Positions 10,903 through 16,414 of a DNA stretch of 64,000 bases are shown here, one piece after another. This stretch comes from Escherichia phage RB3. The stretch's first letter is position 1; each line of letters starts with the position of its first letter. A program made the position numbers and the translations under genes. The stretch is taken from sequence record KM606994. One strand, given 5' to 3'. Under the pieces are notes generated by a model. The model did not search any database and had not been told where the DNA came from. It was given only the letters and a program-made list of their open reading frames with translations.

Positions 10903-11210
10903 CGGAAAGTCCCTGCAATTGGAATACTAACAATACGCCCAGTATCTAAAATTCGCTGATATAATCTTTGTGTGTCTACGTCAGGCTTAACATGTTTAAC
11001 TTCTATTTTATTAAACCAAAATTTACGTGGAGTCTCAACTAATCTTGGAATTCCCTTACCTAAAGCTAGTTGATACTGCTCTTTAAGAGTGGTAAATACT
11101 TTATCAGCAATCTTCCATTCAAAAAATACAGCAGGACGATGTTCATCGAGCGGAACTGGCGCCGTAAATCCGTCTTTGTCTCGGTAAACTATCGCATATA
11201 CATAAACCAT
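10899..11210 (-). CDS. hypothetical protein (103 aa, dda.1 position)
   Basis: ORF track; overlaps dda start by 4 nt. Confidence 0.45.
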   Translation of the reverse strand: MVYVYAIVYRDKDGFTAPVPLDEHRPAVFFEWKIADKVFTTLKEQYQLALGKGIPRLVETPRKFWFNKIEVKHVKPDVDTQRLYQRILDTGRIVSIPIAGTFR

Positions 11211-11211
11211 A

Positions 11212-11958
11212 TTATCCTCGGATAAGTTTAAAAATTGAACAATTTAGCGGGTATCCTCTTTTTAATTTGAGTTTATCAATAAATGATAAGTTTTGAAACC
11301 GCTCTACACCTTGAATAATTTTATCACACATATCATATTGCATTTCTGCTTCTGACAACTTTTTCACAATTTTCCAATCCGAGCCTTTAAGAAGAACGTT
11401 CAGTTTAACAACTTCAGCGCCTTCTGCTATACGAGAACCATCAATACGAGCTTTAAGTGCTATAATTCTTAGCTTAATGTCAGAGGTCTGTTTTGACTCA
11501 GAAAGCTGAGAAATGTGTTCAATTCGGTTTTCACGTTTTTTCTGTATAGCTTTAATTTGATTATAAGTCTTTTTGATTTTAGCCCATTTCTTTTCATCTA
11601 AATTTAGTTTATGAACTTTTTTCGCAGATGAACGACCAATTCGCAAAGCAAACAAATCACGTTTTTCAATCAACTCCTCTAAAGTATAATCAGAACGAAA
11701 TGTATTATACTTTTTCTTTACTGCAATAACATTCCCTTTAATGTATCCAACGTTATTATCAAAACGTTCTAATGATAATTTCTCTCCTTCAATACGATTA
11801 TCAAAAGGTTCTCCCGAGTAAGCACAAACTTTTTGATCTAAAATGTTCTTAATGTAATTGAAGTCTAAGTTAAAATCTTTAGAACGTCTTTTTGCAGATG
11901 CCTGAGTGTGCTCTAAACGACGTTTAATTTTACGAATTTGATTATTAGACAGTTTCAT
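11212..11958 (-). CDS. srd: Srd-like protein (248 aa)
   Basis: Size and position between dda and modA as T4 srd; basic, helical. Confidence 0.6.
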   Translation of the reverse strand: MKLSNNQIRKIKRRLEHTQASAKRRSKDFNLDFNYIKNILDQKVCAYSGEPFDNRIEGEKLSLERFDNNVGYIKGNVIAVKKKYNTFRSDYTLEELIEKRDLFALRIGRSSAKKVHKLNLDEKKWAKIKKTYNQIKAIQKKRENRIEHISQLSESKQTSDIKLRIIALKARIDGSRIAEGAEVVKLNVLLKGSDWKIVKKLSEAEMQYDMCDKIIQGVERFQNLSFIDKLKLKRGYPLNCSIFKLIRG

Positions 11959-11996
11959 ATTTTTCTCACATCTTACAGACGATTTAATACTTTATT

Positions 11997-12026
11997 ACTA
12001 TAACATTTTTACCTTAACTTGTAAAC
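11997..12026 (-). promoter_or_regulatory. early promoter (GTTTAC, 18 nt, TATAGT) upstream of srd
   Basis: Plus strand actata-N18-gtaaac. Confidence 0.5.
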
Positions 12027-12041
12027 AACTTTATGTAAAAA

Positions 12042-12066
12042 TGCTTTAAAAATTTCATGGTATAAT
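12042..12066 (+). promoter_or_regulatory. plus-strand MotA-box middle promoter (TGCTTTA, 12 nt, TGgTATAAT)
   Basis: Canonical MotA box and extended -10 on the plus strand, pointing into modA antisense. Confidence 0.4.
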
Positions 12067-12083
12067 GAATCTAAGTCCTTCCA

Positions 12084-12686
12084 TTATAGATTAAATCCTT
12101 CAAAATCAAGAGTATAGATAGTGTATGTTGAATACTTTTTATACTCATATCTATCTGCAATTCTAAATACACTTCCAGCTGGTATCATTACTTCTTGTTC
12201 ATCTGAAACTAATTCCATATTACGATAACGATGGCTATCCGGAAACTTAAAGTTTGGATTGTATTCTTTACAGCGTAGAGCTTTTATAGCATACTCCTGG
12301 AAATTGAATACCATAGGAGCTTTGAATTCAAAAATAACTTGTGTGTTATACTCTAAACCGGAAGCAAAATGTAGAGCTATATTTTTATCATATGAAGCTG
12401 ATACTACTTTATCAAATGTAATAATATCAATTCCTTGATTTAACACTTGCTTAGTCTCGACTGGAACACCTCTCCAAAGAGGTTTATCGTTTGGAACCAA
12501 ACGAGATTTGATTATTTCATTTAACCAAGTATGGTCATCTGGCTTATTAGTAATACAATGAATTAAAAGTTCAATTTCAGATAAATTAAACCCTTCAGAA
12601 AGTAATTCTTCACGAATAGAAGCACGCACCGATGCATCCATTGATTTTATTTTAAAATCTTTTAGTTGCATTACTGAGTATTTCAT
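12084..12686 (-). CDS. modA: ADP-ribosyltransferase ModA (200 aa)
   Basis: R-S-E ART motifs (LWRG, SAS, EQEVMIP); length as T4 ModA. Confidence 0.8.
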   Translation of the reverse strand: MKYSVMQLKDFKIKSMDASVRASIREELLSEGFNLSEIELLIHCITNKPDDHTWLNEIIKSRLVPNDKPLWRGVPVETKQVLNQGIDIITFDKVVSASYDKNIALHFASGLEYNTQVIFEFKAPMVFNFQEYAIKALRCKEYNPNFKFPDSHRYRNMELVSDEQEVMIPAGSVFRIADRYEYKKYSTYTIYTLDFEGFNL

Positions 12687-13306
12687 TCAACTACCTCAAT
12701 ATCATAAACTTTAAATGTTCCAAATGAATCGTGTAATTTTTCTTTTGAAATAGAAGTTATTTTATATTTTCCAATTGGAATCATCCATTCTTGTTCACGC
12801 ACAATCATCATTAAGTTATCAGTACGCTCTGAATCTAATCCATCAGTATCTTCATACGTGTACTTAAACTCAGTATTAGGAGAAGAAAGTATAATATCGC
12901 TGATATGGTCAGAATAATTAAAAGCTTTATCAGTTTTTAAGCGAAATATTATTTCAGTGAAATACTCAACATAAGAAAAACCACATGCTGTGTGCAAACT
13001 AGTAGTAAATGAATCTACCCTGTTCGTTGAAAACACTTCTCCAACTTGTAAATCTTTAATGAGTTCTTTTGTCGATTTTGATATACCACGATATAATTGA
13101 TAAGGTGATTTAGTTAAATGCTTTTTAACGATTTTATTCAACTGCCTATGAAGAGCTTCATTCTTTTTGGCTTCCATACATTGCCAAAGAATTGACTGTT
13201 CAAAGTCAGTAAATTTTTCACAGACCTTTTTATACATATCATATTGAAAATCAACGCTTTCAGCTTTTATAGATAACTGTTCAACATCTGCAAGATTAAT
13301 AATCAT
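12683..13306 (-). CDS. modB: ADP-ribosyltransferase ModB (207 aa)
   Basis: ART motifs (LYRG, STN, EQEWMIP); paralog of modA; length as T4 ModB. Confidence 0.8.
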   Translation of the reverse strand: MIINLADVEQLSIKAESVDFQYDMYKKVCEKFTDFEQSILWQCMEAKKNEALHRQLNKIVKKHLTKSPYQLYRGISKSTKELIKDLQVGEVFSTNRVDSFTTSLHTACGFSYVEYFTEIIFRLKTDKAFNYSDHISDIILSSPNTEFKYTYEDTDGLDSERTDNLMMIVREQEWMIPIGKYKITSISKEKLHDSFGTFKVYDIEVVE

Positions 13307-13373
13307 GATAGCCTCCGTATACTTCAGAAGCTATCATATCATCGTTAGAAAGGAAAGTAAACAACTTTTTGAA

Positions 13374-15460: not shown

Positions 15461-15480
15461 AAATGAAAAAAGGACTCCCG
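15461..15480 (-). terminator. intrinsic terminator downstream of soc (stem, UUCG loop, U-run)
   Basis: aggactcc-cgaa-ggagtcct preceded by an A-run on the plus strand (U-run on minus transcript). Confidence 0.6.
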
Positions 15481-15495
15481 AAGGAGTCCTTGAAT

Positions 15496-16343: not shown

Positions 16344-16414
16344 TATTTTTCCTTTCAATTCATGGGTTAGTAGATTAATTATACAATAAATATATAAAGC
16401 AATAAGGAGGACAT

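Follow-up and report, generated by a model that had tools for sequence, protein, structure and literature searches.

The locus examined here lies in a window of 64,000 nucleotides of DNA from Escherichia phage RB3 (sequence record KM606994), in which the neighbouring genes dda, dda.1, srd, modA and modB are all encoded on the minus strand. Over bases 11200-12700, the window is 100% identical to the genome of phage RB5 (KM606995), where the coordinates are the same, and some 500 further Tequatroviruses, among them T2 and T6, show 94-98% identity. The RB5 record also encodes asiA (160136-160408) and motA (162228-162863). T4 itself has the same gene order and the same sequence at the site, with the MotA box at 11866 and the -10 element ending at 11890. 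The genes srd and modA are separated by a gap of 125 bp, which holds the early promoter of srd on the minus strand and, on the plus strand, a putative middle promoter directed into modA. The coordinates of these features, together with the corresponding element in other genera, are collected in Table 1.

Table 1. Features of the srd-modA-modB locus in the window, and the antisense element found behind mod in other genera of T4-like phages
Feature	Position	Strand	Sequence and remarks
MotA box	12039-12048	+	aaaTGCTTTA, read directly; core TGCTTTA at 12042-12048; centre at about -30 relative to the predicted start
Spacer	12049-12060	+	aaaatttcatgg, 12 nt; its three final bases are the TGn of the extended -10
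Extended -10	12058-12066	+	TGgTATAAT, read directly; TATAAT at 12061-12066
Discriminator and predicted start region	12067-12075	+	gaatctAAG; predicted +1 at A12073/A12074, taking the usual 7 nt after the -10
srd early promoter	11997-12025	-	sigma-70-type: TTTACA, 17 nt, TG-TATAGT; divergent; its UP-element zone overlaps the MotA box
srd	11212-11958	-	ORF; RB5 and T4 annotation; other flank of the spacer
modA, RNA polymerase alpha ADP-ribosyltransferase	12084-12686	-	ORF; annotation of the RB5 record and of T4
modB	12683-13306	-	ORF; T4 annotation; reached by the predicted antisense RNA only without termination in modA
Two weak tandem hairpins	12468-12504	+	sole candidate intrinsic 3' end, doubtful; the RNA would be about 400-430 nt long
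Element in Mosigvirus JS09, ST0 and RB69	past last mod gene	antisense	aaaTGCTTTA, 13 nt, TATAAT
Element in Dhakavirus	past last mod gene	antisense	tttTGCTTTA, 12 nt, TATAAT
Element in Karamvirus	past last mod gene	antisense	ataTGCTTTT, 13 nt, TATAAT
Element in Gelderlandvirus	past last mod gene	antisense	attTGCTTTT, 13 nt, TATAAT
Element in Jiaodavirus	past last mod gene	antisense	aaaTGCTTTC, 13 nt, TATAAT

The earlier note on this DNA described the plus-strand element as standing back to back with the early promoter of srd, and this arrangement is borne out, with the minus-strand hexamer TTTACA at 12025-12020 and the extended -10 ending at 11997. Both hexamers of the srd promoter are kept in an alignment of 21 Tequatrovirus sequences, in which the spacer between them is variable. 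The record of phage Lutter annotates this early promoter, which is the only promoter it places here. Since the MotA box occupies about -52 to -58 relative to the srd promoter, the two promoters would compete for the same DNA.

Other elements of the neighbourhood deserve mention in their own right. The 5' leader of srd carries the motif CGTC(C/T)GTAAGA (11967-11977, minus strand), which precedes the ribosome-binding site of this gene by about 10 nt. The motif is kept in Tequatro-, Mosig-, Dhaka- and Jiaodavirus (also in the surveyed loci L022, L023, L028 and L029) amid a diverging leader, and in Jiaodavirus it falls within the antisense promoter's spacer. It may serve srd as a leader RNA signal, acting in processing or in translational control. 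In T2, AV122 and ECO4, an insertion of 9 bp, CATATTATG, close to the 5' end of srd (alignment columns 21-29; near window positions 11949-11950) adds three codons to the annotated gene (756 versus 747 nt) and creates a second in-frame ATG. At the other end of the locus, a hairpin with a 14-bp stem (13304-13338) covers the Shine-Dalgarno sequence (GGAGG) and the start codon of modB, immediately after an early-type promoter (TTTACT, 17 nt, TG-TATGAT; 13361-13333), and could limit translation initiation of this toxic gene. Finally, the strong palindromic hairpin AAGGACTCCCGAAGGAGTCCTT at 15470-15491 reads as a minus-strand terminator and is present in identical form in Jiaodavirus PKO111 (L028, 413-434), just after a gene annotated as 'virion structural protein', which is striking for a non-coding element across genera.

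Middle transcripts of T4 start about 7 nt after the -10 element, from about 1 min after infection, and depend on MotA and AsiA. The consensus of this promoter class is (a/t)(a/t)(a/t)TGCTTtA, followed after 12 ± 1 nt by TAtaaT and optionally extended by TGn, which is present in about half of the T4 middle promoters (PMC2988021). The plus-strand box at the modA site is an exact fit to this consensus, its A/T triplet included, and is separated from TATAAT by 12 nt with TGg immediately before the hexamer, so that both the class spacing and the optional extension are found. The presence of a MotA box and an extended -10 at this place, as claimed in the earlier note, was thus confirmed by direct reading. 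The layout it gave was right in its elements and wrong in placing 12 nt before TGgTATAAT, as the real order is box, 9 nt, TGg and TATAAT. The bases located 17 nt upstream of the plus-strand -10 read aaaatg and do not resemble a -35 hexamer; a sigma-70 scan likewise found no plus-strand -35/-10 pair at the site, while the same scan detects the minus-strand srd promoter. The predicted start lies outside modA, 10-11 nt from its stop codon (12084-12086).

The well-characterized middle promoters of T4, such as PuvsX and PrIIB2, have the same architecture: the same box at -30, a spacing of 12 ± 1 nt, TAtaaT with optional TGn and no -35 element. MotA and AsiA are encoded by the host phage in both cases, and the start regions are alike within the same genome. 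In that sense, the bases after the -10 at modA resemble those of two sense-strand matches of the window, 49427(-), with ggttctaag, and 42444(-), with gaatctgac, and the motif g(g/a)(t/a)TCT(a/g)A follows the -10 of both of these and of the sense-strand match at 16401(-). Unlike those promoters, the one at modA lies on the strand opposite to the genes, has no gene to express and is predicted from sequence.

The element is also rare. The window holds three matches to the strict pattern TGCTTTA-N11-13-TATAAT, where 100 dinucleotide shuffles of it predict 0.01, and the modA site is the sole match on the plus strand. The relaxed form, TGCTTNA-N11-13-TANNNT, is matched 18 times where 4.9 matches are expected; these lie mainly on the minus strand (12 of 18), which is the strand of the genes around the modA site, and the five plus-strand matches other than the modA site have poor -10 hexamers. 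A chance match is ruled out by these shuffle statistics together with the conservation described below.

The transcription programme of T4 is among the best mapped, and its middle promoters are named for genes or for sites inside genes (P34i, P46i). The 58 identified promoters (Hinton 2010, PMC2988021) include none between Pdda.1 (11138) and P56/69 (16813), and none is listed near T4 11.9 kb. The GenBank and RefSeq records of T4 carry no promoter features at the srd-modA site, and literature searches found an antisense middle promoter at modA nowhere mentioned. For RB69, a predicted promoter, 'Pm:12081' (12081-12122, plus strand; '1 bp ins', score 7.9), is listed in Additional file 4 of Nolan et al. 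2006 (PMC1524935). It corresponds to the orthologous site, which in RB69 also lies between srd and modA, and its '1 bp ins' to the 13-nt spacing found there. This entry is one line in the supplement, its HMM score is low, and its orientation, its conservation and its link to mod are not discussed in that paper. The same list gives four plus-strand predicted middle promoters in RB69 (12081, 54516, 79256 and 88491) and one in 44RR (117597). More recently, a T4 dRNA-seq preprint (bioRxiv 10.1101/2024.04.04.588121) has reported 150 transcription start sites, 22 of them antisense; its modA-modB primers assayed the sense transcript. In T4, the reverse primer lies some 75-100 nt ahead of the modA stop codon, a position that hints at a sense 3' end near the srd-modA spacer and proves nothing. 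The element has therefore been listed at most, and never analysed; it is very likely a real, uncatalogued antisense promoter.

Its absence from the catalogue of mapped T4 middle promoters, and the fact that some consensus-like middle promoters are inactive in vivo (PMC2988021), favour the reading that the site is not a working promoter at all, being instead either a sense-strand signal (in the 3'-UTR or the processing of mod mRNA, or as an UP element of srd) or a look-alike that is silent in the modified DNA of T4. The silent look-alikes carry a GATT box, rather than the GCTT found here (PMC2988021). Conservation within Tequatrovirus does not settle the matter. The srd-modA spacer is 80-95% identical within this genus and more diverged than the flanking genes. 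In the alignment of 21 sequences, it varies mostly in the srd leader and between the hexamers of the early promoter, whereas aaaATGCTTTAAAA and TGGTATAATGAATCTAAGTCC are invariant, as are the box and the -10; the two common polymorphisms within the plus-strand promoter (A/C and A/G) both fall in its 12-nt spacer. Nevertheless, the element and the modA coding sequence beside it are conserved to about the same degree, and therefore this conservation alone is weak evidence.

Outside Tequatrovirus, ModA homologs share only 25-36% identity, and in other genera mod and srd are 80 to 152 bp apart. Even so, Mosig-, Dhaka-, Karam-, Gelderland- and Jiaodavirus all have the element past their last mod gene, in antisense orientation (Table 1), where it is the only antisense-strand match per locus (3.5-5.6 kb each). 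The survey was extended to IMG/VR, where a scan by ModA alone gave just six near-identical loci, and a Srd alignment retrieved 51 diverse loci totalling 286.5 kb. The pattern [TC]GCTT[TC]N-N11-13-TATAAT has 41 matches on their antisense strand, one in each of 41 of the 51 srd loci, and every one of them lies in the gap after mod, with none elsewhere in the 286.5 kb; the sense strand of the same loci has eight. Leaving aside three RB49-like loci, the element was found wherever a locus has a clear Mod homolog that a spacer separates from the next gene. MotA homologs occur in the positive groups, and are found in T4-like phages of Klebsiella, Enterobacter, Salmonella, Serratia and Pectobacterium.

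The geometry is the same in all 41 positive loci: the predicted start lies outside the mod stop codon and points into mod, and the -10 is located 3-46 nt beyond this codon (median 36). The sequences between box and -10 fall into at least 14 unrelated spacer families that cannot be aligned between genera, and their length is always 12-13 nt despite indels. TATAAT is perfect in the 41 positive IMG/VR loci, even when searched for as TAnnnT, as well as in the positive GenBank loci examined. Further positions are conserved that the search did not require, namely a G at -14 (retained in most of 17 representative sequences), a G directly after the -10, a T at -3 and a purine-rich start, which give the start region the pattern g(g/a)(t/a)T(c/t)(t/a)(a/g)(a/g)G across lineages. 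The conserved unit is therefore a bipartite DNA motif of fixed spacing and fixed orientation with a free spacer sequence, which is the footprint of a promoter and not that of an RNA element or of an UP element. This signature, along with the composition of the box, makes it distinctly improbable that the site is a sense-strand signal or a silent look-alike.

The natural variants of the locus indicate which of its neighbours the element accompanies. In three metagenomic T4-like phages (L056, L057 and L072), an extra ORF of 62-63 aa is inserted between mod and srd, and the promoter remains beside mod, in a gap of 68 bp; the inserted ORF (2251-2442) has its start codon 14 nt from the antisense MotA box. 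The srd loci of the 51-locus IMG/VR survey that have no mod upstream have no antisense element either. In one contig of 175,774 bp (L083; position 2462), the mod stop and the srd start overlap, leaving no spacer, and there is no antisense promoter; this locus is a natural case of loss of the element. PS2-like loci, with a very weak Mod match, have only a degenerate candidate, AGCTTCA-12-TAACA(A/T). The RB49-like Krischviruses keep both modB and srd, and their 61-bp spacer holds a sense-strand sigma-70 promoter and lacks the antisense element. Neither a motA ortholog nor a middle-promoter consensus was found in RB49 (PMC1524935), and the absence of the element from these phages, in spite of their modB and srd, again argues against the reading that the site is not a working promoter. 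The claim of the earlier note that a canonical middle promoter is aimed antisense into modA is upheld on these grounds: the match to the consensus is exact, place and orientation are conserved among diverged Tevenvirinae, and the element is missing from a relative for which no motA ortholog was found.

The same variants bear on the proposal that the bound complex matters and not the RNA. A parked complex of MotA/AsiA and polymerase would block early read-through from mod into srd-dda.1-dda and, where the arrangement is T4-like, would occlude the srd promoter's UP-element zone as well, switching srd off at middle times. This proposal draws on the DNA shared by the MotA box and the region at -52 to -58 of the srd promoter, and on Karam-, Gelderland- and Jiaodavirus, where the element fills the entire spacer of 80-87 bp and its box is 14-17 nt from the start codon of srd, the next gene. 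Those three genera have no evident srd early promoter in this spacer, and since several lineages bear the element but not the divergent early promoter, promoter occlusion is not its common function. For the same reason, an UP element of the srd promoter was rejected as the sole cause of conservation. Moreover, a pure roadblock needs neither a perfect -10 nor a conserved start region in one fixed orientation, and where an ORF is inserted, the element goes with mod and not with srd. A parked complex is therefore unlikely to be what is conserved, although it overlaps with convergent transcription, which would also lower read-through.

Regarding the product of the promoter, terminator scans found no convincing plus-strand intrinsic terminator in 12073-13306. 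The tandem hairpins listed in Table 1 have poor T-runs and a fold z-score of only -1.56, and no convincing or conserved structure emerged when the predicted RNA was folded over its first 448 nt. The predicted RNA is slightly richer in C than in G, a bias typical of Rho loading sites, so that Rho may end the antisense transcript. There is no late promoter (TATAAATA) nearby on the plus strand, and no conserved ORF or ribosome-binding site downstream on it, for which reason the predicted RNA is considered non-coding. The alternative, a small unannotated plus-strand protein gene driven by this promoter, could point to two short ORFs downstream (12121-12228, starting with GTG, 35 aa; and 12259-12438, starting with TTG, 59 aa). 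However, RB5 and AnYang have no ATG-initiated ORF of at least 25 aa within 500 nt of the start, the downstream ORFs of other genera are unrelated and have no ribosome-binding sites, and the low identity of ModA between genera leaves little room for a conserved overlapping frame. Such a gene is extremely improbable.

A non-coding transcript from a middle promoter is not without precedent. P34i, in ori(34), which is oriG, and PuvsY, in oriF, produce MotA-dependent transcripts that are used as R-loop primer RNA and not as mRNA. Like the promoter at modA, P34i is not located upstream of a gene; it lies inside gene 34 and is antisense to it. By analogy, the RNA starting at modA could form an R-loop that primes clockwise leading-strand replication and contributes to oriA. 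The minimal oriF and oriG consist of a promoter of the middle mode together with an A+T-rich unwinding element (PMC3016281), and the P34i transcript of oriG serves replication (PMC2988021). Besides, oriA has been mapped by array near soc, a few kb clockwise of the site, and its priming mechanism is unsettled (PMC3016281); the predicted transcript is non-coding, and the first 100 nt downstream of the start have 73% A+T in RB5. In other genera the A+T content downstream is 62-67%, which is not unusual for these genomes. The review describes the oriA promoter only as 'a nearby MotA-dependent promoter' (PMC3016281), for which P56/69 (T4 16,813), as the closest listed promoter, is a guessed candidate; the antisense site is about 3 kb from soc. 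Furthermore, in contrast to oriG and oriF, the element has no defined unwinding element and no known origin activity, and it is tied to the 3' end of mod in many lineages, a tight linkage for which an origin gives no obvious reason. A function in replication priming is thus quite unlikely; if true, it would help to resolve the long-unclear oriA.

The closest likeness is to the cis-antisense and convergent-promoter interference known from phages and bacteria, in which a promoter at the 3' end of a gene points into it and yields a fully complementary RNA as well as head-on polymerases. At modA, the promoter likewise stands opposite the gene and its predicted transcript overlaps it, a likeness known from DNA geometry; in contrast to those systems, it would be activated by a phage-encoded activator at a set time. 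Both sense and antisense transcription have been described for gene 32 of T4, according to the citation of Belin et al. 1987 in PMC2988021.

Taken together, the element behind modA is most probably a working MotA-type promoter, and the maintenance of its place and orientation across at least 14 T4-like lineages makes it very likely that a real promoter has been conserved. That it depends on MotA/AsiA in vivo and gives rise to a non-coding antisense RNA of modA, perhaps also of modB, which curtails mod expression, is a proposal whose chances are about even. The current model is as follows. The promoter would fire clockwise from about 12073, opposite to all neighbouring genes. As MotA and AsiA are themselves early proteins and would accumulate only after early expression, antisense transcription would begin only with the early programme already under way. 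From then on, it would shorten the expression of the toxic and only briefly needed ADP-ribosyltransferase gene or genes, as well as read-through into srd, through head-on collision with polymerases that set out from the early promoters, through pairing with mod mRNA, or through both. The outcome would be a built-in timer at the early-to-middle switch. Antisense control of mod at this switch, as suggested in the earlier note, is plausible and consistent with the promoter tracking mod and not srd.

ModA and ModB are early proteins, and ModA, as well as overexpressed ModB, is toxic or lethal to the host (PMC9697503; PMC2988021; PMC3014915). No terminator is visible for the early modB-modA mRNA. 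More tentatively, then, the element may be a conserved timer in which a MotA-driven antisense promoter silences ModA and the RNAylating ModB once the early phase ends, and which could also create the 3' end of the modB-modA mRNA.

If this proposal is true, an antisense layer would be added to the early-to-middle switch of T4, held at the 3' end of mod through the deep divergence of the Tevenvirinae. It would also offer a concrete handle on the temporal restriction of ModA and of ModB, the latter being of wide interest as it attaches RNA chains to host proteins. As the element is intergenic, it can be mutated without touching any protein.
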